Source: Squalus acanthias (Eukaryota). From it: a stretch of DNA of 64,000 nucleotides. Where the stretch lies: the NCBI GenBank assembly GCA_030390025.1, contig CM059445.1:58900001-58964000 (forward strand). Direction: 5' to 3'. The notes beneath the pieces are model-generated. The model made no database searches. It saw only the letters and a program-made list of their open reading frames with translations, and had not been told where the DNA came from. Positions within the stretch are counted from its first letter, which is position 1, and each line of letters begins with the position of its first letter. A program made the position numbers and the translations under genes. Below are positions 4,384 through 37,705 of the stretch, in pieces.

Positions 4384-4435
4384 ATGAACGGTGGGATGGG
4401 TCTGCTCTTGCTCCTGCCAGCTCTCATATTCTACG
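4384..4435 (+). CDS. JAML: JAML-like signal peptide exon (MNGGMGLLLLLPALIFY)
   Basis: Acceptor tttctctccatag| at 4380, ATG 4384, hydrophobic leader, phase-1 donor G|gtaagt. Confidence 0.8.
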
Positions 4436-7400
4436 GTAAGTGCTTCGTTTATTGAGAATAGAGATGGTGGAACAATGCATTATTGTGTGGAAGGGCTTTG
4501 AGTCTCAACTGTGATCGGGGAGGGGGGGGGCGGGGGGAAAGGGTTGCCAACTCTCGTTGGATGTATTCCTGGAGATTTCATCACATGACCTCCCACCTCT
4601 AACCGCTCCGCCCCCACACTCGCGCCATTGGTCCATCCTCAGAGTGCCCCGCCTTACCCGATTGGATGATGCCTGACGGTCAGTCAAACAGCGATTTTTT
4701 CCCCCGCCTCCCCCATCTCCAATATTTTTATAAATAAAAGCGATTACAGAAAATTAAAAAAAAAACAATTTCTTTTAATGCCCCCTATGATTTTTCTCCT
4801 GGGTTTTTGCTCACAGCAGTGTCCTGGAGATGAATCTTCAATTCCTGCAGACTCCAGGGCAATCAGGAAGATGGACAAACACAATCGGGGGAGAGAGACG
4901 GCTCTGAACAACTGTTAATGACAACCACTAACTTACAGCTCACTTCTCTGTAAACAGTTCATTGCAAGTGTTAACTTTAAACCCTCAGAGAAAAGTTTAT
5001 TAAGAACATAAGAAATAGGAGCAGGAGTCGGCCATATGGCCCCTCGAGCCTGCTCCGCCATTCAATAAGATCGTGGCTGATCTTCGACCTCAACTCCACC
5101 TTCCCGCCCGATCCCCATATCCCTTAATTCCCCTAGAGCCCAAAAATCTATCGATCTCAGTCTTGAATATACTCAACGACTGAGCCTCCACAGCCCTCTG
5201 GGGTAGAGAATTCCAAAGATTCACCACCCTCTGAGTGAAGAAATTCCTCCTCATCTCAGTCTTCAATGGCCGACCCCTTATCCTGAGGCAATGCCCCCTA
5301 GTTCTAGACTCTCCAGTCAGGGGAAACAACCTCTCAGCATCTATTGAGCTACAGCAAGAGGTTTCCAGACAATTCAGTTTTGCGACGGACTGCCTACCTG
5401 ACCTGGGCACAGGGAATGATCCCAGGTAAGTCCGAGGCCTGGGGTCTGAGGCCCGATCGAAATGAAACCGGCGAGCTGTGGACTACTGCTGTGTGTCCCC
5501 AGACAGCTCGTCAGTGAGGCGGGGATCAGTTTCAGGCCACCGCGACACTGGCAGTGAACCCCGGGTAGGTCCTGGGAGAGGAGGGGAAGGCCAGCATGGG
5601 GAGGGATGGGGCAAACAGGAAGGGGGTGGCGCTCGAGAGAGAGAGGGGGAGCTGATCAGGAGAGGGAGGGGGAGTCGATCGGGAGAGGGGAGGGGATTGA
5701 GAGAGGGGGGGTCGATCGGGAAGGGGAGGGGATTGAGAGAGGGGGGGTCGATCGGGAAGGGGAGGGGATTGAGAGAGGGGAGGTCGATCGGGAGAGGGGA
5801 GGGGATTGAGAGAGGGGGGGTCGATTGGGAAGGGGAGGGGATTGAGAGAGGGGGGGTCGATCGGGAGAGGGGAGGGGATTGAGAGAGGGGGGGTCGATTG
5901 GGAAGGGGAGGGGATTGAGAGAGGGGGGGTCGATTGAGAGAGGGGAGGGGATTGAGAGAGGGGGGGTCGATCAGGAGAGGGGAGGGGATTGAGAGAGGGG
6001 GGGTCGATTGGGAAGGGGAGGGGATTGAGAGAGGGGGGGTCGATTGAGAGAGGGGAGGGGATTGAGAGAGGGGGGGTCGATCAGGAAGGGGAGGGGATTG
6101 AGAGAGGGGGGGTCGATTGGGAAGGGGAGGGGATTGAGAGAGGGGGGGTCGATCGGGAGAGGGGAGGGGATTGAGAGAGGGGGGGTCGATCGGGAAGGGG
6201 AGGGGATTGAGAGAGGGGGGGGTCGATCGGGAGAGGGGAGGGGATTGAGAGAGGGGGGGGTCGATTGGGAAGGGGAGGGGATTGAGAGAGGGGGGGTCGA
6301 TTGAGAGAGGGGAGGGGATTGAGAGAGGGGGGGTCGATCGGGAAGGGGAGGGGATTGAGAGAGGGGGGGTCGATCGGGAGAGGGGAGGGGATTGAGAGAG
6401 GGGGGGTCGATTGGGAAGGGGAGGGGATTGAGAGAGGGGGGGTCGATTGAGAGAGGGGAGGGGATTGAGAGAGGGGGGAGCCAATCGGGAAAGGGGAGGG
6501 GATTGAGAGAGTGGGGGGAATTGAGAGAGGGGGGAGTCGATTGGGTAGGAGAGGGGAGGGGATTGAGAGAGGGGGAGTCGATCGGGAGAGGGGAGGGGAT
6601 TGAGAGAGGGGGGGTCGATCGGGAGAGGGGAGGGGATTGAGAGAGGGGGAGTCGATCGGGAAGGGGGGAACAGGAGGGGAGGAGGGGAACAGGAGGGGGG
6701 GAGGGGATCAGGAGGGGGGGAGGGGAACAGGAGGGGGGAGGGGAACAGGAGGGGGGAGGGGAACAGGAGAGGGGGAGGGGAACAGGAGGGGGGAGGGGAA
6801 CAGGAGAGGGGGAGGGGAACAGGAGGGGGGGAGGGGAACAGGAGGGGGGGAGGGGATCAGGAGGGGGGGAGGGGAACAGGAGGGGGGGAGGGGATCAGGA
6901 GGGGGGGAGGGGAACAGGAGGGGGGGAGGGGAACAGGAGGGGGGGAGGGGAACAGGAGGGGGGAGGGGAACAGGAGGGGGGGAGGGGATCAGGAGGGGGG
7001 GAGGGGAACAGGAGGGGGGGAGGGGATCAGGAGGGGGGGACGGGATACTTCAGCAGACATTAGACCCCTAACTAAAGGGGCCGACACCTGCTTTAGGCGT
7101 CTGCCCAGACATCTAAAACAATGGGTGCCACGAGTTTAGCAGTGGGACAAATGCCTGGACAGATTGGGCTAAACTGGTCACCGGTTTAATGCCTGGAAGC
7201 AGTGGGAGAAATAGGTTGCCTTGCGGCTGTTAGGCTCGGAAGAGAGGGAAGAATGAGAAGAATGGAAGCACCCTACCCGGTGTGGTACGGAGCCACACAG
7301 ACCAGGAAAGTCCCAGCGTCCATTCACGGGTCTGTGCCGACCACAGCCTAGGCAGAAGTAAAAGAACAGAGGAAAGAAAGAACCTGCATTTCTCCAGCAC

Positions 7401-10400
7401 CTTTCATGACCTCAGGATGTCCCAAAGCGCATGACAGCCAATGAAGTACTTTTTTGAAGTGTAGTCACTGTTGTAATGTAGGAAACACGGCAGCCAATTT
7501 GCGCACAGCAAGCTCCCACAAACAGCAGTGTGATAAATGACCAGATAATCTGATTTTTTAATGATGTTGATTGAGGGATAAATATTGGCCAGGATACCGG
7601 GGAGAACTCCCCCTGCTCTTCTTAGAAATAATGCCATGGGATCTTTTACATCCACCCCAGAGGGCAGACGGCGCCTCAGTTTAACGCCTATGATTCTATT
7701 TAAAAAAATTTGCAGGGCTACGGGGAAAGGGCGGGGGAGTGGGACTAGCTGAAGTGCTCTTGCTGAGAGCTAGCACAGGCTCGACAGGCCGAATGGCCTC
7801 CTTCTGTGCTGTAACCATGCTATCTCATCTGAAAGACAGCACCTCTGACAGTGCAGCACTCCGTCAGCACTGCACTGGGAGTGTTAGACTGGATTTTTGT
7901 GCTCAAGTGTCTGGAGTGGGGCTCGAACCCACAACCTCCTGACACGGAGGCGAGAGAGCTACCCACTGAGCTCTCCCCTGTTCCCTATTCTCACGTTCCT
8001 TTATTCCCCTATCCTGCAACCACCTATCTAACCTATTTTTAAATGTTGGCATGGTCTCAGCTTTAATCACGAACTCTGGCCGTGAATTCCACAGCCTCAC
8101 AACTCTTGTGTAAAAAATACATTTCTCCTGCTCTCTGGCCCAAATCTCTATTATTTAATCTTACATCCATGTCCCCTCATTCTAGACCCCTCAACCACTG
8201 GAAACACTCTCGGGGCAATTTTAACCTAACCCGTCCTTTGGGTAACTGGCCCGATCGGGAGCAACACTGGTTTCACACCTCGCCCGATTTTAATTTCCAT
8301 TAAAGTCAACAGAGAGCGAGATATAAAACTGGCGTTCCACCCGATCCCGTGGGATTCTCGCCCAGCGAATAAAATTAAAATGACTCCTTCAGTTTCTATC
8401 CACTCTGACCCTTCCATTCATAGCTTTAAATATCTCTATCAAATCACATTGTACATAAGAACATAAGAATCAGGAGCAGGAGTCGGCCATTCGGCCCCTC
8501 GAGCCTGCTCCGCCATTCAATAAGATCATGGTTGGTCTTCGATCTCAACTCCACTTTCCTGCCGGATCCCCATATCCCTTGATTCCCTTGGAGTCTAAAA
8601 ATCTATCGATCTCAGCCTTGAATATATTCAATGACTCAGCATCCACAGCCCTCTGGGGTAGAGAATTTCAAAGATTCACAACCCTCTGAGTGAAGAAATT
8701 CCTCCGCATCTCAGTCTTAAATGGACACCCCTTATCCTGAGACTATGACCCCTAGTTCTAGACTCTCCAGCCAGGGGAAACAGCCTCTCAGCATCTACCT
8801 GGTCAAGCCTCTAGTAATTTATATGTTTCAATGAAATCACCTCTCATTCTTCTAAACTCCAGAGAATAGAGTCCCAATCTACTCAGTCTCTCCTCATATG
8901 ACAACCCTCTCATCTATGTTCAACAAAACAAATGCATAAGCGCTTGGATGGAAGGTGTTTAAGGCAGCAGTTTGGTTTCAGGATTCATATCCCTTGCACA
9001 AATCGCTCAAGTTCCGTTCAGGTGGCGGGCGATCCGACCCCAGCTGTACTGAGACTCTGACGGAGCGCCCCTCAGACCAGACGCAAAGGTGAGCCGCAAC
9101 AGTAACTTCCCGTAAAGAGGAAGTCGCTTCAACACCTCCCTCCCCTTCCCCATCGCCCCTACCGCACCACCAACCACCCACAGTTTCCCTCTTTCCAGGT
9201 GCCTGACTTCTACCCACAGCCGCTTTCTTGCTGCAAAGCAACTTAACCCTTCATAAGGCACCTTAGTTCAGGCCAATGCTCCGATGCAGTACTGAGGGAG
9301 GGCGACCTTGACATAGGTGCCAAGTTCCACACGAGACACTAAACCAAGAACCCCCCGTGGGTGGATAATGGTGGCTTTAGGTAATATTTTCCAACTCGGA
9401 CTCTTTGAAGGAGCCCTTGTTTGCAAAATGAACCTACAGCCTGGTGCTGGAAGATCTGCAGCTAGCTTTAGTTTATATCTGCAGAGGTTTTCTGAACAAT
9501 CTTGTTTCAATTGTTCCAGTATTCGAGGCATGGACAACATCAACTGGATTTCATTCAATAAATGTGTAAATGAAAGCTAGCGCGGATTTGTTAAAGGCAA
9601 ATCGTGTTTGACTAACTTGATTGAGTTCTTTGAAGAAGTAACGGAGAAGGTTGATGAGGGTAGTGTAGTTGATGTTGTGTATATGGACTTTAAAAGGTGT
9701 TTGATAAAGTATCACATAATAGACTTGTTAGCAAAACTGAAGCCCATGGGATTAAAAGGACAGTGGCTGCGTGGATATGAAATTGGCTAAGGGACCGAAA
9801 GCAGAGAGTAGTGGTTAGTGATTGTTTTTCAGACTGAGGGAAGTATACAGTGGTGTCCACCAGGGGTTGATGTTGGGACCGCTGCTCTTTTTGATATATA
9901 TTAATGACCAGGACTTGAGTTTACATACATGGCATAATTTCAAAGTTTGCAGATGACACGAAACTTTGAAATGTAGCAAACAGTGAGGAGGATAGTAACA
10001 GACTCCAGGAGGACATAGACAGACTGGTGAAATGGGCAGACACAGGGCAGATGAAATTTAACGCAGAGAAGGGTGCGGTGATTCATTTTGGTAGGACGAA
10101 TGAAGAGAGGCAATATAAAATAAATGGTACAATTTTAACAGAGGTGCAGGAACAGATAGACCCGGAGGTGTATGTAAACACGTCTTTGAAGGTGGCAGGA
10201 CAATTTCAGAAGGCTGTTAAAAAGCACGTGGAATCCTTGGCTTTATAAATAGAGGCATAGAGTACAAAAGGAAGGAAGTTATGCTAAACCTTTATAAAAC
10301 ACTGGAGTATTGTGGCCAGCTCTGGACACCACATTTTAGGAAGAATGTTAAGGTCTTGGAGAGGGTGCAGAGGAGACTTACTAGAATGGGACCAGGGATA

Positions 10401-13400
10401 AAAGAATTCAATTATATAGAGAGACTAGAGAAACTGAGGTTGTTCTCCTTAGAGCAGAGAAGGTTAAGGGGAGATTTGATAGAGCTGTTCAAAATCATGA
10501 AGGGTTTCGATAGAGTAAATAAGGAGAAACTGTTTCCAGTGGCAGGAGGGTCGGTAACCAGAGGACACAGATTGAAGGTGATTGGCAAAAGAACCAGAGG
10601 CGACATGAGGGAAAAGCAGTTTATGCAGCGAGTTGTTGCGATCTGGAATGCACTGCCTGAAAGGGCGGTGGAAGCAGATTCAATATTCAAAAAGAAATTG
10701 GAGAAATACTTGAAGAAGGAAACTTTGCAAGGCCATGCGGAAAGAGCAGGGGAGTGGGGCAAATTGGATAGAATCTGTCAAAGAGGCACGATGGGCCAAA
10801 CGGCCTCCTTCTATGCTGTATTATTCCATGATTCAATGTGTCAAGGAACGGTCAGGCACCTGGTGTTGTAAACTAAATTGAGAGGTCGCACAACACCAGG
10901 TTATAGTCCAACAGTTTTATTTGAAATCACAAGCTTTCGGAACTATCGCTCCTTCCTCAGGTGAAGTAAATTGGATACAGAATCGTCAGAGCATATATAG
11001 ATGGAAAAAAAAGCATGTGTACTTTACAATTGCAGACCAATAAATTAAATCATCCTGACTATCTGCCGAGGTGTGATAAAGTTAATTAAGTCAGCCAGGA
11101 AGGTACCACATCAAAAGACATAGCAAGATACAACTGAGACAATGAGGTGAAGTCGCAGGGGTTCTAACGTGTCAAAAGCTGCCGTCTGTATGTAAAACGA
11201 AAAGCTTTAAAAAAAAAAAATATTTACTTTTTTACTGGGAAAATTTTTACTTTTTTACTGGGAATCACATCTGTGAACAAGCTAACGACGACTCGAGTCC
11301 GGATCACGTCATGTATCGTGACATAAACCCAAGATCCCGATTGAGACCGTCTTCATGAGTGCAGAACTTGGCTATCATTTCTGCTCGATGATTTTGCGTT
11401 GTCGTGTGTTTCTAAGGTTGCCTTGGAGAACGCTTACCCGCAGATCCGAGGCTGAATGTCCTTGACTGCTGAAGTGTTCCCCGACTGGGAGGTAACAATC
11501 CTGCCTGGCGATTGTTGCGCGGTGCTCGTTCATACGTTGTCTCAGTGTCTGCATGGTCTCGCCGATGTACCATGCCGCGGTGCATTCTTTCCTGCAACGT
11601 ATGAGGTAGACAACGTTGGCCGAGTCACATGAGTATGTACCATGTACCTGGTGGGTAGTGTCCTCACGTGTGATGGTGGTATCTGTGTTGATGATCTGGC
11701 ATGTCTTGCAGAGTTTGCCATGGCAGGGTTGTGTGGTGTCGTGGTCGCTGTTATCCTGAAAGCTGGGTAATTTGCTGCGAACGATGGTACTTCTGAGGTT
11801 AGGCGGCTGTTTGAAGGCAAGTAGTGGAGGCGTGGGGATGGCCTTAGCGAGGTGTTTGTCGTCATCGATGACATGTTGAAGGCTGCGAAGAACATGTCGT
11901 AGTTTCTCCGCTCCGGGGAAGTACTGGACGACGTAGGGTACCCTGTTGGTTGTGTCCCGTGTTTGCCTTCTGAGGAGGTCTATGCGATTTTTCGCTGTGG
12001 CCCGTCGGAACTGTCGATCGATGAGTCGAGCGTCATATCCCGTTCTTACGAGGGCGTTTTTCAGCGTCCGTAGGTGTCCATCGCGTTCCTCCTCGTCTGA
12101 GCAGATCCTGTGTATTCGCAGGGCTTGTCCATAGGGGATGGCTTCTTTAACATGGTTAGGGTGGAAGCTGGAGAAGTGGAGCATCGTGAGGTTGTCCGTG
12201 GGCTTGCGGTAGAGTGAAGTGCTGAGGTGTCCGTCTTTGATGGAGATTCGTGTGTCCAGGAATGAGACCGATTCTGAGGAGTAGTCCATGGTGAGTTTGA
12301 TGGTGGGATGGAACTTGTTTATGTTATCGTATGTAAACTAAGCCATACAGATCAGGGGAGTGCAGTTCAATCTCCTGTCTGGGAGAGAGCTGTTACCCAC
12401 TGGGGTAGCAAGGGCACTCCAGCTGCACCCAGTGCCCCTAGGCTAGGGAAGGGAATATCAGCCAATGGTCTCTTTCCAGATCACCGTCTAGTGCCCGCTG
12501 CTGGAAGCTGCATGTGGGTGGTTATTGAGGCCAGCGGTGATTCCATCATCATTGCACAAAAGATCCTGGCCTGCAACGAATATTAGTGGGCAATAACAGA
12601 GCTCAGTCTGTGCTGAGAAACCTGACATCGCTTCAAGGGGGGTTTATATATAGAATAGCAGATACCCGGGAGTGAGTTACAGGCTGGAATCTAATCGAGG
12701 GGTTCGGGGGGGTTGATATATAGAATAACAAATACCCGGGAGTGAGTTACAGGCTGGAATCTAATTGAGGGGTTCAGGGGGTTTATATATAGAATAACGG
12801 ATACCTGGGAGTGAGTTACAGGCTGGAATCTAATCGAGGGGTTCGGGGGGGGTGGGCTTATATATAGAATAACGAATACCCGGGAGTGAGTTACAGGCTG
12901 GAATCTAATCGAGGGGTTCAGGGGTTTTATATATAGAATAACGAATACCCGGGAGTGAGTTACAGGCTGGAATCTAATCGAGGAGTTCGGGGGGGTTATA
13001 TATAGAATAACAGATACCCGGGAGTGAGTTACAGGCTGGAAGCTAATCGAGGGGTTCGGGGGGGGTTATATATAGAATAGCAGATACCCGGGAGTGAGTT
13101 ACAGGCTGGAATCTAATCGAGGGGTTCGGGGGGGTTTTATATATAGAATGACAGGTACCCGGGAGTGAGTTACAAGCTGGGATCTAATCGAGGGGTTCGG
13201 GGGGGGTTATTTATAGAATAACAGATACCTGGGAGTGAGTTACAGGCTGGAATCTAATCGAGGGGTTCGGGGGGGGTTATATATAGAATAACAGATACCC
13301 GGGAGTGAGTTACAGGCTGGAATCTAATCGAGCGGTTCGGGGGGGTTATATATAGAATGACAGGTACCCGGGAGTGAGTTACAAGCTGGGATCTAATCGA

Positions 13401-16400
13401 GGGGTTCGGGGGGGTTTTATATATAGAATGACAGGTACCCGGGAGTGAGTTACAGGCTGGAATCTAATCGAGGGGTTCGGGAGGGTTATATATAGAATGA
13501 CAGGTACCCGGGAGTGAGCTACAGGCTGGAATCTAATCGAGGGGTTCGGGGGGGTGTTATATATAGAATAACGGATCCCCGGGAGTGAGTTACAGGCTGG
13601 AATCTAATCGAGGGGTTCGGGGGGGTTATGTATAGAATAACGGATACCCCGAAGTGAGTTACAGGCTGGAATCTAATCGAGGGGTTCGGGGGGTTTATAT
13701 ATAGAATAACAGATACCCGGGAGTGAGTTACAGGCTGGAATCTAATCGAGGGGTTCGGGGTGTTTATATATAGAATGACAGATACCCGGGAGTGAGTTAC
13801 AGACTGGAATCTAATCGAGGGGTTCGGGGGGTTTATATATAGAATAACGGATACCCGGGAGTGAGTTACAGGCTGGAATCTAATCGAGGGGTTCGGGGGG
13901 GTTATATATAGAATAACAGATACCCGGGAGTGAGTTACAGGCTGGAATCTAATCGAGGGGTTCGGGGGGGTTTATATATAGAATAACGGATACCCGGGAG
14001 TGAGTTACAGGCTGGAATCTAATCGAGGGGTTCGGGGGGGGGTTATATATGGAATGACAGGTACGCGGGAGTGAGTTACAGGCTGGAATCTAATCGAGGG
14101 GTTCGGGGTGGTTTATATATAGAATAACAGATACCCGGGAGTGAGTTACAGGCTGGAATCTAATCGAGGGGTTCGGGGGGTTTATATATAGAATGACAGG
14201 TACCTGATGCAGCATCACTAGCGGTGGAAATGAACCCACTGCCTCTCAACACAAGTAATGAGATTTCCACCACTCTCCGGGCACTGACTGCTTGTTGCTA
14301 CTCTACAGATATCCGCTCAATCTCAGCGGTTGGCATCTCAACCCCGACATACCTGTTTGTGAAAGAGGGGATGGAGCTACGGCTGGACTGCATGCTCAAC
14401 TACAGTGCTCACACACAACTACACAACGTCAAGCTGGAATGGCACCACACCCCTGATAGTGGTGCTGAAGAGGACTTGGTGAGTGATAGGTCCCCCAGTG
14501 CTCGGTGCTGATCCCCAGGGGCTGCACTCCACCACGACCCTCTGATCCTGGGTCTTGAGCTCGAACCATGCAGGTGTCAACATGTTGCCAGTTTAGGGCA
14601 ACTGAGCTGCTGCCGGCCAGAACTGGTCAGGAATCGGCCTATTGACCGTCTCTGGGAGTTCTGCGGAACTTGGGCACCAAAGCACGCTCCAAACGATGCT
14701 GTTTTGGTGCATCCACTAAAACTGTAACTTAACCAAAAATACAACAACTGAAACTTAACAAATTAAATTAAAATTTCATTTCCGGGGGTGATGATGCACT
14801 CCAGACCCTGCGGTGCCCACCGGTCGCGGAAGACGATGAGGGCAGAATTCAGTGGGTGACCTGCTCTGGTTATGATATACCTCGAAAGGCACGGAGGGTG
14901 AATTTAGGGGTTTTCACTGTCCAGCACATATCAAAAATACGAAACTACCCCAGTTAGTCTTCAGAATAAAGTGCCAGGGAAATATTTGGCCATATGCCAT
15001 GTTTGCCACACCAATGTGCCAATATATTTTAAACAGCTCGCACCCCGACACTGGGTCTGTGGATGTTTCAGGGAGACAGCGTCCCTTTAAAGGTTCACGG
15101 TAGTTTTTGCGTTCTGCGACATGCAAATGAGTTTGAGCCGAAACTCGAGGGAAAAAAAAAACACTACTCAAAACCGCCGCACTTTGCGCCCGGATCATCG
15201 AATGCGTCCAAAGTGGAAACACCACCCCCAGGTCTGCCGGGATTATTGACTTTAAACCATTTGCAGAATGCTGAAGCTGCTTCTGTAACTCTTCCGTTTT
15301 GTTTATTGTTCATACTTGGGATGTGGGCCTTGCTGGCAAGGCTGGGATTTATTTTCCATCCCGAGTTGCCCTGAGAAGGTCTTCTCCCGTTTGATACAAC
15401 TGAGTGGCTTGCGATGCCATTTCAGAGGGCAGTTGAGAGTTAACCACGTTGGTATGGGACTGGAGTCACATGTAGGCCCAGACTGGCTAAGGATGGCCGG
15501 TTTCCTTCCCTAAAGGGCAGTTGTGAACCAGTTGGGTTTTTACAACAATCTGATAGCTTCATGGTCACTTTTACTGACAACAGCATTTTATTTCCAGAAT
15601 TATTTTTTAAACTGCGATGGTGGGATTTGAATTCACGTTCTCTGGATTGAAAGTACAGGCCATGGGATGGACAACGTAAAGGAAGCTTTACTCTGTATCT
15701 AACCCGTGCTGTACCTGCCCTGGGAGTGTTTGATGGAACAGTGTAGAGGGAGCTTTACTCTGTATCTAACCCGTGCTGTACCTGCCCTGGGAGTGTTTGA
15801 TGGGACAGTGTAGAGGGAGCTTTACTCTGTATCTAACCTGTGCTGTACCTGCCCTGGGAGTGTTTGATGGAACAGTGTAGAGGGAGCTTTACTCTGTATC
15901 TAACCCGTGCTGTACCTGCCCTGGGAGTGTTTGATGGAACAGTGTAGAGGGAGCTTTACTCTGTATCTAACCCGTGCTGTACCTGCCCTGGGAGTGTTTG
16001 ATGGAACAGTGTAGAGGGAGCTTTACTCTGTATCTAACCCGTGCTGTACCTGCCCTGGGAGTGTTTGATGGGACAGTGTAGAGGGAGCTTTACTCTGTAT
16101 CTAACCCGTGCTGTACCTGCCCTGGGAGTGTTTGATGGGACAGTGTAGAGGGAGCTTTACTCTGTATCTAACCCGTGCTGTACCTGCCCTGGGGGTGTTT
16201 GATGGGACAGTGTAGAGGGAGCTTTACTCTGTATCTAACCCATGCTTCTCTTTAGTTTCTTTCCTTCTTTATTCCAACACAGATTTTCTTTCACTATCAA
16301 AATCTCAGTACGGTGAAGGAGGACAGCTTGTTCACCCCGAGACTGCAGTGGGTGGGTGACATCGGACAAAACAATGGTTCCATTCTCATAACTAAAGTGG

Positions 16401-19400
16401 AATGCAATGACACAGGCAATTTCACCTGCGATATGCGGATCCCCAGGATGTCCAGCAGTATCTATAAAAGCAGCACTCACCTAACAGTTTTGTGCAAAGG
16501 TAATGTACAGAGTCGCTGTCATTCTATACACTGGTAGTGAATGGGTAGGGGTTTGGTCCCTTGGGATTCTATACTCCAGGAGTGAATGGGAAGAGATTTG
16601 GTCCATTGGGATTCTATACACTGGGTGTGAATTGGAAGGCATTTGATCCATTGGGATTCTATACACTGAGAGTGAATGGGAAAGGGTTTGGTCCATTGGG
16701 ATTCTATACACTGAGAGTGAATGGGAAAGGGTTTGGTCCATTGGGATTCTATACACTGGGAGTGAATTGGAAAGGGTTTGGTCAATTGGGATTCTATACA
16801 CTGGGAGTGATTGGGAAAGGGTTTGGTCAATTGAGATTCTATGCACTGGGAGTGAATGAGAAGGGATTTTGGTCCATTGGGATTGTGTACAATGGGAGTG
16901 AATGGGAAGGAGTTTGGTCCATTGGGATTCTAAAATCTGGGAGTAAATTGGAAGGGGTTTGTTCCATTGGGATTCTATACACTGGGAGTGAATGGGAAGG
17001 GGTTTGATCCATTGGGATTCTATATAAATTTCTGCTTTTTTTGGGGGGGGTGGGGGGTGGGAGATTTTACACCTAAATATTTCTGAGCATTTCTATTCCC
17101 TTCAGGTATGGGGCACAAACGATCTTTCCGGCTGCCTGTGTCAGAGGAAGTGGTTCCGAAGAATATTATCATATATGCAACAGTTGGGGTCTTTACCCTC
17201 TTTGTTGCGCTGTCTATTCTTGTAATCATGTGGAGGAAACGTTCGATGCACACAGCACCAAGGAGTCAAAGGTATACACTTTGAGGAGGGAGAATTTAAA
17301 GGAGTTGCATTGTCATCCACCTTTTTACGCAATTAATAATTCTGAACTTTTCTCCCCCATTCTCTGCGGTCAATACACAGAAAGAACGATCCAGGTGCCC
17401 TTGAAAACTCTGAGGTAAGGGGCGTTTTAATAATATTGTTTTTGAGTGTAGACTTTTTATAATCCAGAATATTAAATAGTCAGTCATGCTCTCAGTCACT
17501 GAAACTTTAAGACCAATTGTCAACTCCAGACCGACAAGGGTTGAGTGTTCTTCCGAGGATTCTCCATATTCAGAGGAACTTAAGACTTACTTTCCCATCG
17601 TAGAGTTAGGGGGGATCTGATTGAGGTTTATGAAGGGAACAGAATGTGTTCCAGTTGGCAGTTTGTTCCAATTAAATAGATTAGGGAGGAGCAGGGGTCA
17701 CAAATTTAAGTTGTATAAGATCTAGGTTAGATGTCAGGAGGTGGTCATTTCCCCAGAGAATAGAGGACCTCTGGAACAGGCTGCCGTCTTGTGCGGTGGA
17801 TGCCGATTCACTGAATTCCTTCAAGTGAGAGCTGGACCTGTTTCTGGCTGGGGCGGAGATCAACTCTTACGGAAGGGTAGGTACTGCAGGGAATTCAGGG
17901 CCAGAGGGATCTCCTGGACTAGTTTCGATCACCTAGGAGAGGAATTTCCCAGATTCTTGCCCCCCAAATTGGCCTGGGTTTCAATCTGGTTTTTTCACCT
18001 CTCCCAGGAGGTGGGGTGGGGTGGGGAGTGTATATGTTATGATACACAAGGTATCACAATTGTGTGGGACTTGCTGGATGAACCAGAGGGTCTTTACCTG
18101 TCCGTCATTGTTTGTTTATTTGTAAGCTTCGTCTAACCTTCACCCCATGGTTAACCCAGTGAATAAACAAAATTTAAACTTCACAGGCTTGAAAGAAGGT
18201 TGTACTGGGCTAAATGAGAGATATAGGGGGGAAAATTTGGTTGTGTTGCGCCTCCCGTTAGTGCCCTAAGAGGGCGCTAATGGGGTGCAAAGCAACTAAC
18301 GCCCAGGCACGGCGATGTTTGCGCCGCTCGCGAAATTGACCAGACATTTTGCGGCGGCGCTCAACACTACCGCCACGATCTCCTGCGCCCGCAGATCGTG
18401 ATGTTAGTCGAGTGTGCAACGCCCCGGTAGCGCCCCGGACCGGGTATTGAGTGCCGCCCCCTGCCTTACCGCCTGCCTCTAGCAACGACAGGTTGAGGGG
18501 AACGTTTTGCAGTTGGGAAGGGACTGGGGGAGCGCTATTTAAAGGCGAACACTTCCTGCCCTTTCTTGTCAGCGGCATTTTTGCACCACGCATTCTGAGA
18601 GAGAGAGAGAGACTTCTGGAGAGAATCAACATTGTGTGAAGGAGTTTTGGGTACTGAGCAGCACTTTGCAGGTTCATTTTGATTTGACCTTCCTTGCATC
18701 GATTTAGAAGAGACTATGGGGGCTGCACTCTGAACTCTTTCCCTGGACCTCTCCATTGTTCTATCCAGCAGAATTGATGTACAGGTCTCTCCAGGCCGAG
18801 ATTCAAGGTTGCAATGAGCAGGGTGTGGATGGAGAGCAAGATCGACCATCCCCTTTAAGAACTGGCCGGCGCCATTGTGTCTGTGTTTCATTGCTGACTG
18901 ACATCACATGAGCTTCGCCAGCGCTCTGAGGTAGCGCCTCGCTCCTCGGCGTTAGAGCCTTAAGAGAGGTGTGTAGCGCCTGATTTAGCGCTCCAATCAC
19001 CTCCAGGGGTGATAGAAGCCAAGTTTGTAGTCAGAGGTGATAATTAGCGCCAGGTGCTAAACTTTGTGCCCGGCCGATAATTGCGCCCCAAATGGGGCGA
19101 TACTGAATTTCTCCCCCATAAGATATTAATTGGTATAGAATCAGGTAGTATTTACAGCAGAGAAACAGGCCATTCGGCCCAACAGGTCCGTGCCGGTGTT
19201 TATGCTCCACACGAGCCCTCTTCATCTCACCCTATTAGCATATCCTTCTATTCCTTTCTCCCTCATGTGTTTATCTAGCTTCCCCTTAAATGCATCTATA
19301 CTATTCGCCTCAGCTACTTGTGGCAGCGAGTTCCACATTCTAACCACTCTCCGAGTTCCTTATTGGATTTATTAGTGACTATCTTATATTTATGGCACCC

Positions 19401-22400: not shown

Positions 22401-24424
22401 TATACTTCCTCAGACTGAGGGTTGCCAACCCTCCAGGATTGCCCTGGAGTCTCCAGGAATAAAAGATTGATCTCCTGGGCACTGCTGGGAGCAACCCTGG
22501 AGAAAAATTATATGGGCACTAAAAAAATGTTTTTTTTCATATTCTTTGAACACTTTCGTTATAAAAATATTAGAGATGGGGGGATAAAAAAAAGGCTGTG
22601 TGACTGAGAGTCAAGAATCATCCCATTGGGTAATGAAGAGTCTGTTCGCTTTCCAATTGGCGCAGGAAGGCGATGTGCCGTGAGGGTGGTTGTGTCAGGG
22701 CGACCAATGGTGGGAGTGTGGGGGTTGGAGATGGGAGGGTCATGTGACGATACCTCCAGGAATACATCCAACCAGAGTTGGCAACCCTAGTCACTGCGCC
22801 AGCCAACTTTCTCCTCATTGGATGTCTGCATGAGTTGACATTTATAGAAAGAAGATCTTGCATTTATACAGTACCTTTCACTAACTCCCCAAAGCGCTCT
22901 ACAGCCAATGAAGTACTTTTTGAAGTGTGGTCACTGTTGTGATGTAGGAAACTCGGCAGCCAATTTGTGCACAGCAAGCTCCCACAAACAGCAATGAGAT
23001 AATGACCAAACAATCTGTTTTTAGTGATGTTGGTTGAGGGATAAATATTGGCCAGGACACCGGGGAGAACTCCCCTGATCTTCTTCGAAATAGTGCCCTG
23101 GGATCTTTTCTGTCCACCTGAGAGGGCAGATGGTGCATCAGTTTAACGTCTCCAAAAGACGGCGCTTCCAACCGTGCAGCACTCCCTCAGTATTGCATTG
23201 GAGTGTGGGCCTGGATTTTGTGCTGAAGGGCTGGATTTTGTCTTGGGGTCGGGTTGGGGTCGTGTCATCCGCATTTCGTGTTATCCACCCGCCTGAAATT
23301 GGATGTGGGAGATTGATGCAATTTTCACTTAATTGGGCAATTGAGTTCCAGCATGTGGGAACCCATGAACCAATTAGTGGTTTCAGTCTGAAAGTCGCCT
23401 CTGATGATGTCATCATTGTAGGTCAGAGACTGCCTGGTCTGGTCTCAGAGATTGCCTGGCCTTTGCTGTGAGAGGACCTGGATGCAAAATGAGCAGCATC
23501 TCAGCAGAGAGAGAGAGAGAATTTTTTTTTCCATCCAGGTCCTCCAAAGGCCAGGCAGTCTCTGAAGACATTCAGTGCAGCAGCATCAGAGGCGACTTTC
23601 AGACCTAATACTACTACTACCTTCATCACATCTCCGTTGTAATAGTGGACCTGCAGCTGATAGTCAGCTATCCACTTGTGCTCCCGCCAGGTTTCACTGG
23701 CGTGTTTCACATCAGGTGTGCTTCACGTCAGAAAAGGGTTAAACTAGCTAAAACGTTTCAAAATGGCATTACAGAGCCAATTTAAGGCTTGTTAAGGGCT
23801 TTAATGGCCTCTCCCACCTCTTGGAGGCGGGACGGAGTCGGGAACACTGCACACGATTTTATCAAAATTGCGTGGAGGCGGGTTGGAGGCGGGATGGGGT
23901 CGGGACCCCTGAATCTGGAACTTTAACCCCCCACAGGCCTCCAAACCGACTCCACGGGTCATTGAAAACCCAGCCCGAAGGCTCTGGAGTGGGTCTTAAA
24001 CCCACAACCTTCCTGACTCAGAGGTGAGAGGGCAACCCACTTGAGCCACGGCTGACGCAGAAAGGGGCTGTGATTCTGTTACACCCTGTGTATTACAAAG
24101 TAATTGCAATCCGTTCCTGGCACATACCGTGGCTGGCGCATATTGTGGGGGCAATTTTGCGGGGTTGTGCTACTCCCTGGGGCGTCTCGCCCACCTGCCG
24201 AGCATTTCGGAAGATCGTGGCTGTCCCAGGTTGAGCTGTTCTGACCATTTGGGAAAACTCAGAAAAATGTGTAAATTATTCCTGCGTGCTTTGTAACTAT
24301 TGTTTTCCTGTCTCTCGTTTGTCTCCAGCGCTCATTCTTAGGAACCGGGAAATCAGACAACCAGTTTACTAATCCAATGGTACTCAACAATCCCGTTTAC
24401 GGAGAGCATTCCCACCAGGTGTAG
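4384..24424 (+). CDS. JAML: JAML/AMICA1-like single Ig-V domain type I membrane protein, 7 coding exons, 286 aa (join 4384-4435,14309-14478,16283-16499,17106-17271,17381-17414,21541-21666,24329-24424)
   Basis: Exons join by GT-AG with consistent phases (1,0,1,2,0,0) into 861 nt without internal stop: signal peptide, Ig-V (LDC..LEW..RLQWVGDIGQNNGSILI..DTGNFTC), TM helix, tail. Segments FHYQNLS, GDIxxNxGS and CDMRIPRMSSSIYKSSTHLTVL resemble recalled human JAML (YYYSNLS, GDILCNDGS, CEIRLKGESQVFKKAVVLHVL); the tail has a YxTM motif; gene lies directly upstream of SCN2B in the same orientation, as human JAML does. Confidence 0.78.
4540..4870 (+). mobile_element. hAT-like MITE (TAGGGTTGCCAAC family), right end degraded
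   Basis: AGGGTTGCCAAC left end; colinear with copies at 22418 and 59520. Confidence 0.7.
5002..5343 (-). mobile_element. CR1 LINE 3' fragment
   Basis: TRGH.LRIRG...[17 protein letters not shown]; AAGAACAT tail repeat. Confidence 0.88.
5660..7040 (+). repeat. Compound G/A-rich minisatellite: about 36-bp unit (5660-6660) then about 20-bp unit (6660-7040)
   Basis: Units GGGAAGGGGAGGGGATTGAGAGAGGGGGGGTCGATC and GGGGAACAGGAGGGGGGGA. Confidence 0.95.
7372..7970 (-). mobile_element. SacSINE1-like DeuSINE interrupted by a CR1 3' fragment (about 7690-7818, + strand)
   Basis: The SINE body resumes at tctcatctgaaagacagcacc after the CR1 tail piece. Confidence 0.78.
8212..8387. mobile_element. Small palindromic MITE family C (about 175 bp)
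   Basis: GGGGCAATTTTAA...TTAAAATGACTCC hairpin-like element interrupting an old CR1 fragment; homologous to 56543-56718. Confidence 0.65.
8454..8915 (-). mobile_element. CR1 LINE 3' fragment
   Basis: Same family as 5002-5343. Confidence 0.85.
9578..10835 (+). mobile_element. CR1 LINE, RT to 3' end, degenerate
   Basis: [54 protein letters not shown]. Confidence 0.9.
10877..12331 (-). mobile_element. Penelope-like element, 5'-truncated (RT C-terminus, GIY-YIG endonuclease, 3' pLTR)
   Basis: ORF 11375-12289 with NVVYLIRC..WYIGET..LRQRMNEH GIY-YIG signature and Cys linker; frameshift near the C-terminus; TSD TGTAAACTAA at 10867-10876 and 12332-12341. Confidence 0.93.
10927..10964 (-). ncRNA. 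Minimal type I hammerhead ribozyme in Penelope pLTR
   Basis: Minus strand UCAC-CUGAGGA-A-GGAGC-GAUA-GUUCC-GAAA-GC-UU-GUGA: CUGANGA and GAAA core, stems I and II pair, palindromic AAGCUU in place of stem III. Confidence 0.8.
12637..14205 (+). repeat. About 69-70 bp tandem repeat, about 22 copies
   Basis: Unit GGGAGTGAGTTACAGGCTGGAATCTAATCGAGGGGTTCGGGGGGTTTATATATAGAATAACAGATACCC, with a variable G run. Confidence 0.97.
14309..14478 (+). CDS. JAML: JAML-like Ig-V domain, N-terminal half exon
   Basis: ctctacag| acceptor; DIRSISAVGISTPTYLFVKEGMELRLDC...KLEWHHTPDSGAEEDL; phase-0 donor TTG|gtgagt. A mid-domain split is typical of the MPZ/SCNxB/JAML family. Confidence 0.88.
14730..14835 (-). mobile_element. 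Possible Tx1/L1-type LINE extreme 3' fragment
   Basis: Minus strand reads VFRDRWAPQGLECIITP followed by a T-rich UTR, like recalled C-termini of fish Tx1 ORF2. Confidence 0.45.
15376..15670 (-). mobile_element. Unassigned tRNA-headed SINE-like repeat
   Basis: B-box-like TTCAAATCCCACC on the minus strand near 15620-15632; its 3' side joins a LINE-tail fragment at about 15305-15375. Confidence 0.45.
15680..16246 (+). repeat. 67-bp tandem repeat, about 8.5 copies
   Basis: Unit GGGAGTGTTTGATGGGACAGTGTAGAGGGAGCTTTACTCTGTATCTAACCCGTGCTGTACCTGCCCT. Confidence 0.97.
16283..16499 (+). CDS. JAML: JAML-like Ig-V domain, C-terminal half exon
   Basis: Long polypyrimidine tract then cacag|; IFFHYQNLS...RLQWVGDIGQNNGSILITKVECNDTGNFTC...THLTVLCK; phase-1 donor G|gtaatg. 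Confidence 0.9.
16520..17025 (+). repeat. 45-bp tandem repeat, about 11 copies
   Basis: Unit GGGATTCTATACACTGGGAGTGAATGGGAAAGGGTTTGGTCCATT. Confidence 0.95.
17106..17271 (+). CDS. JAML: JAML-like stalk and transmembrane exon
   Basis: ttcccttcag| acceptor; IIIYATVGVFTLFVALSILVIMW followed by RKR stop-transfer; phase-2 donor AG|gtatac. Confidence 0.85.
17381..17414 (+). CDS. JAML: JAML-like 34-nt cytoplasmic micro-exon (RKNDPGALENSE)
   Basis: Pyrimidine tract and tacacag| acceptor, GAG|gtaagg donor; converts phase 2 to phase 0 exactly as the next exon requires. Confidence 0.72.
17600..18135 (+). mobile_element. Old CR1-type LINE 3' fragment with long 3' UTR
   Basis: GDLIEVY, RGHKFKL..., FPQRI..LWNRLP remnants. 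Confidence 0.6.
18226..19117. mobile_element. MITE family B (PIF/Harbinger-like non-autonomous)
   Basis: TIR GGGGGGAAAATT...AATTTCTCCCCC, TSD ATA, CpG-rich subterminal palindromes. Confidence 0.82.
19150..19630 (-). mobile_element. CR1 LINE 3' fragment
   Basis: LEKAQKRFT.IIPEL...[17 protein letters not shown]. Confidence 0.8.
19868..20880 (+). repeat. 35-bp tandem repeat, about 29 copies, more diverged at the 5' end
   Basis: Unit TACTGGAGGGATGGGCTTCAATGGGAGAGTTGGGG. Confidence 0.95.
21085..21425 (-). repeat. Old dispersed SINE-like family (related pieces at about 3436-3760, 7270-7350, 12342-12530, 26210-26350, 60970-61215)
   Basis: Recurrent diverged blocks TTCTTCATxTxTGAG, TCCAGxAGGGGTCAC..GATCAGGAG..GGAACCC..GCTGA, CCTTCCTGGTC. 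Confidence 0.5.
21541..21666 (+). CDS. JAML: JAML-like cytoplasmic exon with YFTM and YVTM motifs
   Basis: aatcag| acceptor (weak pyrimidine tract), 42 open codons ending EDEIYVTM, donor ATG|gtaaga. Confidence 0.75.
22418..22789 (-). mobile_element. hAT-like MITE (TAGGGTTGCCAAC family)
   Basis: TIR AGGGTTGCCAAC...GTTGGCAACCCTA. Confidence 0.8.
22845..24057 (-). mobile_element. SacSINE1-like DeuSINE split by MITE A (23228-23976)
   Basis: SINE tail and body on the left, tRNA-like head on the right of the MITE. Confidence 0.8.
23228..23976. mobile_element. MITE family A (PIF/Harbinger-like non-autonomous), inserted in a DeuSINE
   Basis: TIR GGGCTGGATTTT...AAAACCCAGCCC, 3-bp TSD GAA. Confidence 0.82.
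24329..24424 (+). CDS. JAML: JAML-like last coding exon (RSFLGTGKSDNQFTNPMVLNNPVYGEHSHQV*)
   Basis: Strong acceptor tctctcgtttgtctccag|, phase-0 frame ending TAG 24422-24424, AT-rich UTR and AATAAA downstream. Confidence 0.75.
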   Translation, partial: RSFLGTGKSDNQFTNPMVLNNPVYGEHSHQV

Positions 24425-30489: not shown

Positions 30490-30568
30490 ATGAAAGTTAA
30501 TGCCAGACCGGCTCTCCCTCTGCTGCATTTCGGCTTGGTCGGGCTGATGCTGCTGTCCAGCGGCTGGG
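30490..30568 (+). CDS. SCN2B: SCN2B exon 1 (signal peptide [26 protein letters not shown])
   Basis: ATG in GC-richer unique DNA, hydrophobic leader with RPA as in mammalian beta-2, phase-1 donor G|gtaagt matching the exon 2 phase. Confidence 0.85.
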
Positions 30569-33500
30569 GTAAGTTGCAAACCATTCATTGCATTTTACCA
30601 GATTTTTGGAAACAAAAAAAAGCAAAGAGCTGGAGGGGGGGGGGGGGGGGGGGGGAAGAGAGAGAGAGAGAAGGGGGGAAGAGAGAGAGAGAGTCGAGTC
30701 TGAATCAGCAAGACTGCCAAAGCACAGAGATTTGCCATATTTCTTGTTCTTTCTGCAGAGAAAAATAAAATAAAGATTTTATCTAATATTGGATGAGCTG
30801 TCATTGCATGTGTGGAATATTCTGCTCCATACAGATTGGAATTTCCTAACCCCCTTCATATTGTCTGGATCCCACTGTATTTATATATATATTCTTTTCA
30901 GACAATGGTGTTTATTGCATATGTCAAAACAGATTTTTTTGGACTCCTGTTGTTCTCTCACTGAGATTGTTGATGTGGACTAACTCACTCAGATTATTTC
31001 ATATTTTTTATGCACACACACACACACATATATATACAGGGTGAAATGGAGTGCTCGCTCGCTCTCTCTCCCAGGCTGGTTACGGGGTGTGTCAAAATGT
31101 CCTTATCATCAGATGTGTTTTATATTCTAGTCACTAATCTTCAGGGGTCCTCCTCAATATAAAAGGTGTACCCAGTGCTGCAGTCGGCTGTGTTATTCAA
31201 AGGAATGATCCACCTATCGCTAATTGTTGTTTTCCTTCAATTAATATCCTACCCCACAGTGGGGGAGAGCGATTGTCTGGAAAAGACTGAGCTATATGTT
31301 TCTATGGGGGGGATTTTAAAAAATGAATTCCTGTCAATGCTGGGAATCTGAAATTTAAAAAAACATGAAAATGCTGGAAATGCTCACCAGATCTGGTCAA
31401 CATCTGTAGAGGGAGAGAGAAAAGACAGGTTAGTGCACTGGGTGTGTGGACCCTTCCTCAGAACTGGCTTAGACAAGGGCAGGGAAAGGCCACCTTATAA
31501 GGGCTGTCTACAATAAATGGGGAAGAGGGGAGACCAGGTCAAGCGTACAGAGACACCAAACTGCTTTCGGCCATCTGCAAAGAGATTTCGCCACGCCTGA
31601 CAATCTGTAACTTTCTCCATTATTTTGGAGCGTGGCTATTCGGCAGTGGAGGGAACCACAGCTGATCCGGCCCAGTGATCAGAAACAGATGTGCAGTTGC
31701 GTGGAGAAGGCGCGAGAACGCGATGGAGTTGGGGGCCACCCAGTGACCATGGCCTCGGTGTAAATCTCCAATTGATACCTTGGGCCCTTAGAGTGAATGA
31801 GAGCAGGAGCTAAAATACCGGCAAATCCCACAGCCAGTTGGAATGTGATGAAATAATGTGAAATGTAGGAGAAGGGAGACCAAAATTACCAACCCTATGT
31901 TAGTACTCTACTGAAGGGTGGAGTATTATCAGTACAGCACAGAAGGAGGCCATTTGGCCCATTGTGCCTGTGCCTGCTCTTTGAAAGAGCTCTCCAATTA
32001 GTCCCACTTCCTGGCTCTTTCCCCGTAGCCCTGCAAATTTTTCCTTTTCAAGTATTTATCCAATTCCCTTTTGAAAGTTATTATTGAATCTTCTTCCATC
32101 GCCCTTTCAGGCAGCGCATTCCAGATCACAACTCAGTGCGTAAAATATTTCTCCTCATCTCCCTTCTTTTGCCAATTATCTTAAATCTGTGTCCTCTGGT
32201 TACCGACCCTCCTGCCAGTGGAAACAGTATCTCCATACTTACTCTATCAAAACCCCTCATAATTTTGAACATTTCTATTAAATCTTCCCTTAGCCTTCTC
32301 TGCTCTAAGGAGAATAATCCCAGGTTCGCCAGTCTCCACATAACTGAAGTTAGCTCCCGGTCCGGCAATGTCTCGATTTTAAAATTCTCATCATTTTTTT
32401 CAAATCCCTCCATGGCCTCACCCCCCCTCCCTATCTCTGTAACCTCCTCCAGCCCTACAACCACCAAGATCTCTGCAGTTCCTCCAATTCTGGCCTCTTG
32501 CACATCCCTGATTTTCATCGCTCCACCATTGGCGGCCGTGCCTTCAGCTGTCTGGGCCCTAAGCTCTGAAATTCACTCCCTAAACCTCTCCGCCTCTCTC
32601 TCCTCCTTTAAGACGCTCCTTAAAACCTACCTCTGACCACGCTTTTGGTCACCGGTCCTAATATATCCTTATGTGGCTCGGTGTCAAATTTTGTTTGATA
32701 ATCGCTGCTGTGAAGCACCTTGGGATATTTTACTACGTTAAAGGCGCTGTATAAATGCAAGTTGTTGTCGAAACCCATCATCCCTGGCAACAAGTAGATA
32801 ATTCGTTACTGAAAATTTCATGCCTGGGGTTTGTCTGATGTTGAGAGCTCTGCCCAAGTGATCAGTTAGTCTACAAAATTATCCACTGTACCCCCAACAA
32901 ATGTCACCCAGTGACTTGACCAGACAAACCCAAACCGGCCTACATGGTTTTATAAGTTTGTTCATTCTTAATGTCTAAATTCTGAAGCACTCTGGAAATA
33001 CAGATCTAAGTGATGTACTTAAAAAACCTCAGGTGGGATATACCATCTGGCTCCATAGCAACATGGCCGCCCAGTTACACTGAGCAATATCCATGCTCAG
33101 GTGTTGACTGTAGCTCAGTGAGTTGCACTCTTGCCTCTGAGTCAGAAGGTTGTGGGTTCATCGTCCCACTCCAGAGACTTGAGCACAGAATCCAGGCTGA
33201 CACTCCCAGTGCAGTACTGAGGCAGTGCTGCACTGTCAGAGGTGCCGTCTTTCAGATGAGACGTCTGCCCTCTCAGGTGGACATAAAAGATCCCATGCCA
33301 CTATTTTGAAGAAGAGCTGGGGAGTTATCCCCGGTCTCCTGGCCCACATCACTAAAACAGATTATCTGGTCATTTATCTCATTGCTGTTTGTGGAAGCTT
33401 GCGGTGAGCAAATTGGCTGCCGCGTTTCCTACATTACAGCAGTGACTACACTTCAAAAGTACTTCATTGACTGTAAAGCGATTTAGGGACATCCTGAGGT

Positions 33501-36500
33501 TGTGAAAGGCGCTATACAAATGTAGACTCCTCCTAGAAGTTAGTACGAGCTCCATCTGGTGGACTGGATGAGTAATTGCAACGTTGAATCCAGTGGCTTC
33601 AATTCCTAATAGACTGTAAGTTTGAAATGAATATGAGTTACATTTAGGGTTGAATAATCTAGCACCATCGTGGGAACACCATCTTCACAAGGAGCTCAGT
33701 GGTTCGAAGAGAAGGCCCATCGCCACCTTCTCGGGGCAATTATGGACGGGCAATAAATGCTGATCAAGTTTCTTTTTAAAAAGTGTTTAAATAAAAAGTT
33801 ACAACAAGACTCTTCTTCGACTGCAAACCATATTGCAATTTTTAATAATTCAATAATCAAATGAGAAATTGCATCCAAATTGCTAAATTATTTTCGCTAG
33901 TGCACGTTAGTTTTTTATATTGACTTATGGGAGCAGAATCTTTTCTCGATTGTAGCATCTCATCGGTAATCTTCAAAGAACGCAAAAAAGCTTGGAACGA
34001 GAATTAGGCATTTGGTCATCAATCCCAACTCCTTCCACAGTCCATGCAGGTCAACATCAGTCATTCACTCACTCCCCTGAACTAATCTGATCTTTACGGT
34101 GTATCAGCTGTGGCTCAGTGGGCCGCACTCTTGCCTCTGAGTCAGAAGATTGTGGGTTCAAGTACCCACTCCATAAGACTTGAGCACAAGAAATCTAGGC
34201 TAACACTCCCAGTACTGCACTGTTGGAGGTGCCGTCTTTCGAGATGAGATGTTAAACTGAGGCCCCGTCTGCTCTCTAAGGTGGACGTAAAAGATACCAC
34301 GCCACTATTTCGAAGAAGAGCAGGGGAGGTGTCCTGGGGCCAATATTTATCCCTCAATCCACATCATAAAAACAGATTATCTGGTCATTTATCACATTGC
34401 TGTTTGTGGGAGCTTGCTGTGCTCAAATTGTCTGCCGCGTTTCTTACATTACAACAGTGACTGTACTTCATTGGCTGTAAAGCGCTTTGGGACGTCCTCA
34501 GGTCGTGAAAGGCGCTATATAAATGCAAGTCTTTCTCTTTTCTATTGACATCTCTCTAACCCTCAATCAATGTTGATCCATTTCCTTTCTAAAGATACAG
34601 TATTGCCAACTCTCGCGATTCCATCGCAAAAGACGCAATTTTCGGAGTGAAATAAAGCATCACTCGCGATGGAATGCCTAAATCTCGGCATTTTGCGGGG
34701 GGGGGAATACGATTTGCGCACGCACAGAGCAAAGGATACGGTGATTGCAGAGCGGAGTATTGGATGGTCGCGTTGTTTTCTGGAGGTAAATTTCCCAAAG
34801 TGAGTCTGCCTCCTGCGATTCGACCATCCGGGCTCTTTATTTGCACTTCAGTAATACTATAACTGGGAAGGGGATCGTACAGCAAAAAAAACACAAGATT
34901 TTTTTTTAAATAGGAAGAAAACATAAGATGCAGTTTGCAAAAAGGATCAGAGTGAAAGGATAAGAAATGCAACAAGGTTGCATTAAAGTGATTTGGAAGG
35001 TGGGAATGAGAGAGAGAGAGAGAGAGATTGGAAAGTAGCTTCACAATGTGTGTGTGTGAGAGAGAGAGAGCCCATTGCATTTCATTGGCAGCCATCTCAG
35101 CACTGTGCGACTGCATGGTTTTTTAAAAGAGAGAGCGGGGAGAGAGCGAGAGAGGTTTAACTGCATTAATGTGCATCAGATCGACGTGCCTTTCCTCCTG
35201 AGCCGCTTTTAACATACGTCAACTCCATCGCATTTATATTACAACACCATCATCACCGTCGTGGCCTGAGGACAGTCACCGCAACAAAAAAAGAGGCTAG
35301 ATCCGAAGCTAGCAAGCAATCAAAAAAATAAATTGCATGTTAATTATTATCGATCGTTTATAACTAGAGGGCTGGGGGAATTAGATCCGCTCCCCCGCCT
35401 GCAGAACTCCTTATTTTTGTTTACTTTTTGTGATCAGAAGTGCAAAGCGCCTATTTCTTATTATCTCATGTCAGTAATCGGTTAGTAACAGCCGAATGAG
35501 CTTTTTGACCGGGTGCAAAGGTCAGCGAGGGGTCGGGTCAGGAAATAAATAGTAACTCATGATTTCTATACCAAATCTCATGACTTTTAACAGTTTGTCT
35601 CATGATTTATGAGACGGTGGAATTGGCATTACTGAAGATGATCCCTGACCCTGAATTTCTCTGGCAGTCTGTTCCACACACTCACCGTCCTGTGAGGGGA
35701 ATGAACCTCTTCTAACAAGAACATAAGAAATAGGAGCAGGAGTCGGCCATTCGGCCCCTCGAGCCTGCTCCGCCATTCAATAAGATCATGGCTGATCTGA
35801 TCTTAGCCTCAACTCCACTTTCCCGCCCGCTCCCCATAACCCTTGATTCCCCTGTTTTTCAAAAATCTGTCTATCTCCGCCTTGAATATATTCAATGACT
35901 CAGCCTCCACAGCTCTCTGGGGTAGAGAATTCCAAAGATTCACGACCCTCTGAGAGAAGAAATTCCTCCTCATCTCCGTCTTAAATGGGCGACCCCTTAT
36001 TCTGAAACTATGCCCCCTAGTTCTGGATTCACACACGAGGGAAAACATCCTGCATCTACCCTGTCAATCCCCCTCAGAATCTTATAGGTTTCAATAAGAT
36101 CACCTCTCATTCTTCTAAACTCCAATGAGTATAGGCCCAACCTGCTCAACCTTTCCTCATAAGAAAACCCCTTCAACTCAGGAATCAACCTAGTGAACCT
36201 TCTCTGAACTGCCTCCAATGCAAGTATATCCTTCCTTAAATAAGGAGACCAAAACTGTGCACAGTACTCCAGGTGTGGTCTCACCAACACCCTGTAGAGT
36301 TGTAGCAAGACTGCCCTACTTTTATACTCCATCCCCCTTGCAATAAAGGCCAATATTCCATTTGCCTTCCTAATTACTTGCTGTATCTGCATGCTAACTT
36401 TTTGTGTTTCATGTACGAGGACACCCAGATCCCTCTGTACTGCAGCATTCTGTAGTCTCTCTCCATTTAAATAATATTTTGATTTTCTATTCTTCCTACC

Positions 36501-37673: not shown

Positions 37674-37705
<32 letters not shown>

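Follow-up and report, generated by a model that had tools for sequence, protein, structure and literature searches.

A stretch of 64,000 nucleotides from the shark Squalus acanthias (contig CM059445.1, positions 58,900,001 to 58,964,000, forward strand; hereafter the window) raises the question whether a receptor of the JAML type existed in a one-domain form before its Ig domain was duplicated. JAML has been described as a JAM-like receptor with two domains and serves as a target in cancer immunotherapy; an earlier note on the window had read one of its genes as a JAML orthologue with a single Ig domain, and we were interested whether this reading holds. Seven coding exons on the forward strand (4384-24424) encode a type I membrane protein of 286 amino acids with one IgV domain. 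From its sequence, this protein is likely to be a single-IgV JAML orthologue with a YxTM tail, keeping the ancestral one-domain form, and would act as a CAR-binding and PI3K-recruiting leukocyte receptor. The gene is built as follows.

4384..4435, forward strand: coding exon 1, with the start codon and the larger part of the signal peptide (59% to a shark orthologue's N-terminus).
14309..14478, forward strand: exon 2, completing the signal peptide and opening the IgV domain, of which it holds the first half; Cys45 and the K-L-E-W motif (14431-14442) lie here (spliced contigs, profile).
16283..16499, forward strand: exon 3, remaining half of the IgV domain, including Cys123 and the shark-specific Cys115 and Cys145 (Pfam V-set E 7e-9, PDB, spliced contigs).
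16500..17105, forward strand: intron of 606 nt between the Ig and transmembrane (TM) exons, with a 45-bp tandem repeat at 16521-17024.
17106..17271, forward strand: exon 4, stalk, transmembrane helix and basic stop-transfer (spliced contigs, profile).
17381..17414, forward strand: exon 5, a tail exon of 34 nt (tblastn with shark orthologues, contig spacing).
21541..21666, forward strand: exon 6, tail with the proximal tyrosine motif YFTM (21553) and the distal YVTM (21655-21666) (tblastn with shark orthologues).
24329..24424, forward strand: exon 7, last coding exon with the stop codon (spliced contigs, tblastn).

The leader exon, both Ig exons and the TM exon, all claimed before, are present, in frame and separated by GT..AG introns. 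The start at 4384 also held, but the gene does not end at 17271 as had been proposed; three further coding exons, found by tblastn with shark orthologue proteins, encode a signalling tail, and the 3' untranslated region reaches at least 24729. An acceptor AG at 4379-4380 suggests an additional untranslated exon upstream. Two studies supplied four public runs, whose spliced contigs differ from the window exons by 0-2 letters; these contigs were used for junctions alone and not for expression level or tissue. They joined exon 2 to exon 3 in three of the four runs and exon 3 directly to the TM exon in three of four, and two contigs placed 161 letters between the TM exon and the last exon, as would be expected for exons 5 and 6. 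The junction of leader and exon 2 is predicted from the reading frame and from orthologue models rather than from reads; exon 2 opens with the end of the signal peptide in all nine aligned shark orthologues. A protein search with exon 3 returned 11 proteins, all from sharks, 65-76% identical and each with one V-set domain.

With a signal peptide, an IgV domain split over two exons and a single TM segment, the protein shows the hallmarks of the beta/MPZ subfamily. A structure model from an alignment of nine sequences (predicted local distance difference test score, pLDDT, of 42) was discarded; a second model, with the Ig domain mostly above pLDDT 90, confirmed the IgV fold and did not tell the paralogues apart. 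The ectodomain carries five N-glycosylation sequons. Cys115 and Cys145 occur in every shark orthologue aligned but in no other JAML, and probably pair as an extra disulfide at the domain's base.

A profile built from all JAML domains, run over the window, matched in the two Ig exons only (87.9 and 41.2 bits). No second Ig domain was found with it in the introns, including the first intron of 9.9 kb, or in the flanks over positions 1-30400, where the best score was 0.0 bits. The intron between the Ig and TM exons consists to 83% of the 45-bp tandem repeat, much as the earlier note had described it, and its claim of a single Ig domain is borne out by the profile as well as by the contigs in which the TM exon directly follows the Ig exons.

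To place the gene among its relatives, one profile search was used (150 listed of 354 matches), from which 30 proteins were named by look-up and 52 picked by hand; part of the tree rows was labelled by motif first and then clustered with named anchors. The trees included MPZ, MPZL1-3 and SCN2B/SCN4B. In a tree of 64 domain rows, shark and bony-vertebrate JAML stood together on one side of a branch with support of 91/93, which became 100/99 in a tree of 43 rows after 21 long or redundant ones had been dropped. Approximately unbiased (AU) tests rejected the grouping of the shark rows with MPZL3 (p 0.001), MPZ (p 0.0006), MPZL2 (p 0.002) and SCN2B (p 0.015). In held-out profile scoring the window domain reached 96 bits on JAML and 40-68 bits on five paralogue profiles, and the shark domains 86-100 bits on the bony-vertebrate JAML profile compared with 40-79 bits on those of the paralogues, the former being the deepest of the profiles compared and hence at an advantage. 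On a JAML tail profile, the part following the Ig domain scored 30.2 bits, the top of 32 scored rows, with 187 scored shuffles at or below 4.3 bits; one SCN2B row scored above three shark rows on this profile. The NPPD-type FG loop after the second cysteine is present in 29 of 29 paralogue rows and in none of the 22 JAML or seven shark rows. While pairwise scores are ambiguous for the identity of the gene, trees and diagnostic sites are not, and we regard the shark gene as very probably orthologous to JAML.

The number of Ig domains was compared in 17 bony-vertebrate proteins of the JAML clade, most of them gene models. All 12 non-therian proteins have one domain (chicken, a second bird, turtle, crocodile, platypus, echidna, lungfish, coelacanth, bowfin, paddlefish, char and gar; the coelacanth model is truncated), and all five of placental type have two (dog, pangolin, marmot and two unnamed proteins grouping with them). 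JAML of marsupials and amphibians, which lie outside this sample, was not recognised among the matches listed. In the 43-row tree the clades of the two JAML domains, D1 and D2, are each other's closest relatives (99/96) and platypus branches outside them (96/86); the monotremes lie outside in the 64-row tree too, and a grouping of platypus with D1 was rejected by an AU test (p 0.023). Together, the 12 one-domain proteins and the sister relation of D1 and D2 with monotremes outside suggest a single tandem duplication of the Ig domain, which with good confidence would be dated after the monotreme split. The one-domain state is thus likely ancestral and shared by sharks with birds and platypus rather than being a shark relic, and the two-domain state, absent from chicken, turtle, crocodile, monotreme and lungfish JAML, defines the placental form only. 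Therefore, a pre-duplication state as proposed earlier is likely right, but the view of the shark form as a distinctive link finds no support: all non-therian lineages in the sample have a single domain, and RefSeq already carries several such proteins as JAML. A BLAST-level presence table has JAML entries for lamprey and land vertebrates and none for the marine vertebrates it covers (PMC7916592). The unnamed proteins of bowfin, paddlefish, char and gar are likewise JAML orthologues with one domain and a tail of the YxTM type. In two frog MPZL1 models (Ascaphus, Rhinophrynus) the IgV domain occurs twice in nearly identical form; if these models are correct, a domain was duplicated in parallel within the subfamily.

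In the crystal structure of mouse JAML, CAR is reportedly contacted via D1. Mouse JAML binds CXADR (CAR) on epithelia and signals via PI3K through a YMxM motif (PMC8404475, PMC5900413, PMC9041367), mutation of K54 abolishes adhesion to CAR (PMC2600739), and the action of mammalian JAML extends to neutrophils and monocytes (PMC5900413). A YxxM motif was found in the tails of 7/7 shark and 16/17 bony-vertebrate JAML proteins but in no paralogue tail of the 27 rows compared, where many models are partial; YVTM itself is present in the window protein and in all 12 cartilaginous-fish proteins checked. This distal motif (21655-21666) is a predicted docking site for PI3K p85 and ends at a splice donor. 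In several bird and mammal models the YxxM is followed immediately by valine and unrelated sequence, suggesting the same splice donor behind the motif as in the shark gene. The proximal tyrosine motif (21553-21564) reads YFTM in Squalus, a second YxxM, and YVTV in other sharks. Models from Heptranchias, Mustelus and lungfish show a repetition of the motifs of the tail exon.

A lysine matching K54 (numbered after marmot JAML) occurs in 7/7 shark, 15/23 JAML and 0/32 paralogue domains, in the window domain within a motif of the K-V/I/L-D/E type, and the aromatic-Y-x-N-x-S pattern of the C-strand, common to one-domain JAMLs and D1 but not D2, is kept in sharks. A well-conserved CXADR is present in the genome (C5:167869720) and in 13 cartilaginous-fish clusters, with a strongly conserved D1. 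From YxxM, the K54 lysine, the D1-type C-strand pattern and the presence of CXADR, we propose a receptor whose single IgV domain would bind CAR, whose phosphorylated YxTM tail would recruit PI3K and which would act in adhesion and costimulation of white cells. PI3K docking by the shark tail is probable, and binding of CAR by the single domain is slightly favoured; that the shark protein is expressed on gamma-delta T cells in particular and costimulates them is doubtful. The dating of costimulation to early jawed vertebrates is inferred from conserved motifs, and a one-domain JAML-CAR-PI3K circuit operating on the T cells of epithelia from the first jawed vertebrates onward, with the two-domain form as a late mammalian add-on, would be a speculative extension.

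Downstream on the same strand as the JAML-type gene come SCN2B, which begins after 6 kb, and SCN4B, at 143-149 kb counted from the start of the window. This corresponds to the human order, in which JAML lies 5' of SCN2B and in the same orientation. Other features of the window are:

30490..55580, forward strand: SCN2B, with the leader at 30490-30568, Ig exons at about 51305-51475 and 53734-53943 and the TM exon from 55380 (81-89% to shark SCN2B, tree).
5662-7046, 12637-14204, 15676-16246, 19882-20875 and 41814-43726: minisatellite arrays or decayed LINE-like fragments.
9560-10800, 11378-12337 and 26850-28610: a second group of positions with such arrays or fragments.

Such minisatellite arrays and decayed fragments of LINE-like retroelements (LINE, long interspersed nuclear element), seen on inspection of translations, fill the introns. 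Upstream, where the earlier note expected MPZL3 and MPZL2, neither was found in 360 kb, nor by three genome-wide searches, nor beside UBE4A (0.7 Mb downstream) and a CD3E-like exon (5.2 Mb downstream, in the region C22:64099684-64127079). In human, MPZL2 lies 5' of CD3E. Assembly gaps are located 314 kb upstream and, with 500 N, 27 kb 5' of the CD3E-like exon, so that loss, rearrangement or missing sequence are all possible for MPZL2/MPZL3; this block of genes is rearranged or partly missing in this assembly. A block of SCN2B, SCN4B, MPZL2 and MPZL3 has been reported (PMC1971062), a gar read-through model strings together MPZL2, MPZL3 and a one-domain JAML, and there are hints of MPZL2 and the JAML-type gene on one chromosome in two other sharks. 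The claim of synteny is borne out on the SCN2B/SCN4B side only.

No second JAML was found elsewhere in the genome by searches that included chicken JAML and by inspection of the matches examined. The candidates turned out to be P0 (C497:63102), MPZL1 (C5:144005418) and a light-chain-type V (C13), and the chicken-JAML matches on C2944, C7 and C22 (62.04 Mb) single-exon V domains of the nectin/CD226 type; an exon at C22:43669888 is presumably CLMP-like. CAR-like IgV exons, three copies each of two exons, lie at C22:58667894-58733677, 166-232 kb upstream of the window. They show about 40% identity to shark CXADR D1 and are part of 97-99% segmental duplications, and nothing around them matches D2, the TM or the tail of CXADR; they may represent a tandem family or its remnants, close to the orthologue of a CAR-binding receptor.

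Several observations weigh against the assignment and the proposed function. Raw similarity does not discriminate, with 26-34% identity to single JAML domains and 28% to P0; exon 3 scored 36.8 bits on P0 and 27.2 bits on JAML D1 (PDB), and a shark profile 62.8 bits on JAML D1 and 61.8 bits on P0. Foldseek ranked P0, SCN2B and MPZL1 above JAML, using a model folded on a paralogue-rich alignment. JAML sits on a long branch whose internal order departs from that of the species (with sharks next to coelacanth and lungfish at the base), and SCN1B/SCN3B, left out of the trees, lay outside the analysis together with an AU test of MPZL1. K54 is missing from lungfish, coelacanth and ray-finned models, MPZL3/MPZL2 were not found, and CAR binding was mapped to the membrane-proximal domain (D2) in a report cited by PMC2600739. 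RefSeq calls the shark orthologues JAML, P0-like, MPZL3 or uncharacterized, and the P0-like and MPZL3 names in several sharks, the MPZL3 not found in this assembly and the Foldseek order would suit a fast-evolving paralogue of the MPZ family, a shark MPZL3 or P0-like gene drawn to JAML by long-branch attraction. Such a paralogue is nevertheless improbable in view of the AU tests, the JAML-type tail, the K54 lysine, the lack of an NPPD loop and the genuine P0 and MPZL1 at other genome positions.

Even less probable is a two-domain ancestor from which non-therians lost one domain, gene conversion having given mammalian D1 and D2 the appearance of recent sisters. Tandem domains can undergo homogenisation, and marsupials and amphibians are outside a sample composed mostly of gene models; but at least six independent losses would be needed (sharks, ray-finned fish, coelacanth, lungfish, sauropsids and monotremes), the paralogous genes all have one domain, the shark introns hold no Ig remnant and platypus with D1 was rejected. 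A more serious competitor, although we consider it the lesser possibility, is a JAML orthologue with another ligand or role, in which CAR binding and T-cell costimulation came later, in amniotes or mammals, and the shark protein would be an adhesion receptor of homophilic or myeloid type that has a PI3K tail. The ectodomain is only about 30% identical to mammalian D1, its sequons and extra cysteine pair are unseen in other JAMLs, K54 is not retained in bony fish, and the activity of mammalian JAML on neutrophils and monocytes (PMC5900413) would fit as well. Against this stand the K54 equivalent and the D1 pattern of the C-strand, both retained in sharks, and the strong conservation of shark CXADR D1. 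The CAR-binding, PI3K-recruiting JAML orthologue therefore remains our preferred reading.

If it is true, the two-domain shape of JAML would be recent and its likeness to JAM convergent, while the PI3K motif would be as old as jawed vertebrates; the P0-like and MPZL3 names of the shark orthologues would have to be corrected. Natural one-domain JAMLs (shark, chicken, platypus) would allow a test of whether one domain suffices for CAR binding, which bears on the disagreement between the D2 mapping cited in PMC2600739 and the D1 contact reported from the crystal structure, and, if the one-domain circuit is ancient, would show what the added domain changed. The shark gene is the oldest data point, although chicken or platypus display the same architecture. 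The tie of JAML to its MPZ and SCNxB neighbours, put forward earlier, is already in print, as JAML has been placed in the beta/MPZ subfamily (PMC10506104); the available text of an evolutionary study of this subfamily gave no match for the term AMICA (PMC1971062). Our literature search found no paper on JAML domain number or evolution across vertebrates, though subscription journals or supplements may hold one. What is added here is a real orthologue of a known receptor and a modest evolutionary point, apparently unwritten.

Among known systems, the one-domain JAML models of RefSeq share the signal peptide, one IgV, TM and YxTM tail of the shark protein (chicken XP_040546240, platypus XP_007655660, lungfish XP_043936809, the truncated coelacanth XP_064424795, crocodile XP_019398616, catshark XP_038635103 and white shark XP_041030383); they are automatic annotations, for which no functional study was found. 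MPZ/P0, MPZL1-3 and SCN2B/SCN4B resemble it in the single IgV domain over two exons, the fold and a similar raw identity, but differ by the NPPD FG loop, the lack of K54 and of a YxTM in the tail, and their separate clades. Mammalian JAML (AMICA1; mouse, PDB 3MJ6, 3MJ7, 3MJ9) differs from the shark protein in having two IgV domains, no extra cysteine pair, only about 30% identity and MPZL3/MPZL2 upstream, which were not found in the shark. With it, however, the shark gene shares the tree clade, the K-x-D/E-W and C-strand motifs of D1, a tail with a proximal tyrosine and a distal YxTM, and the location 5' of SCN2B on the same strand.

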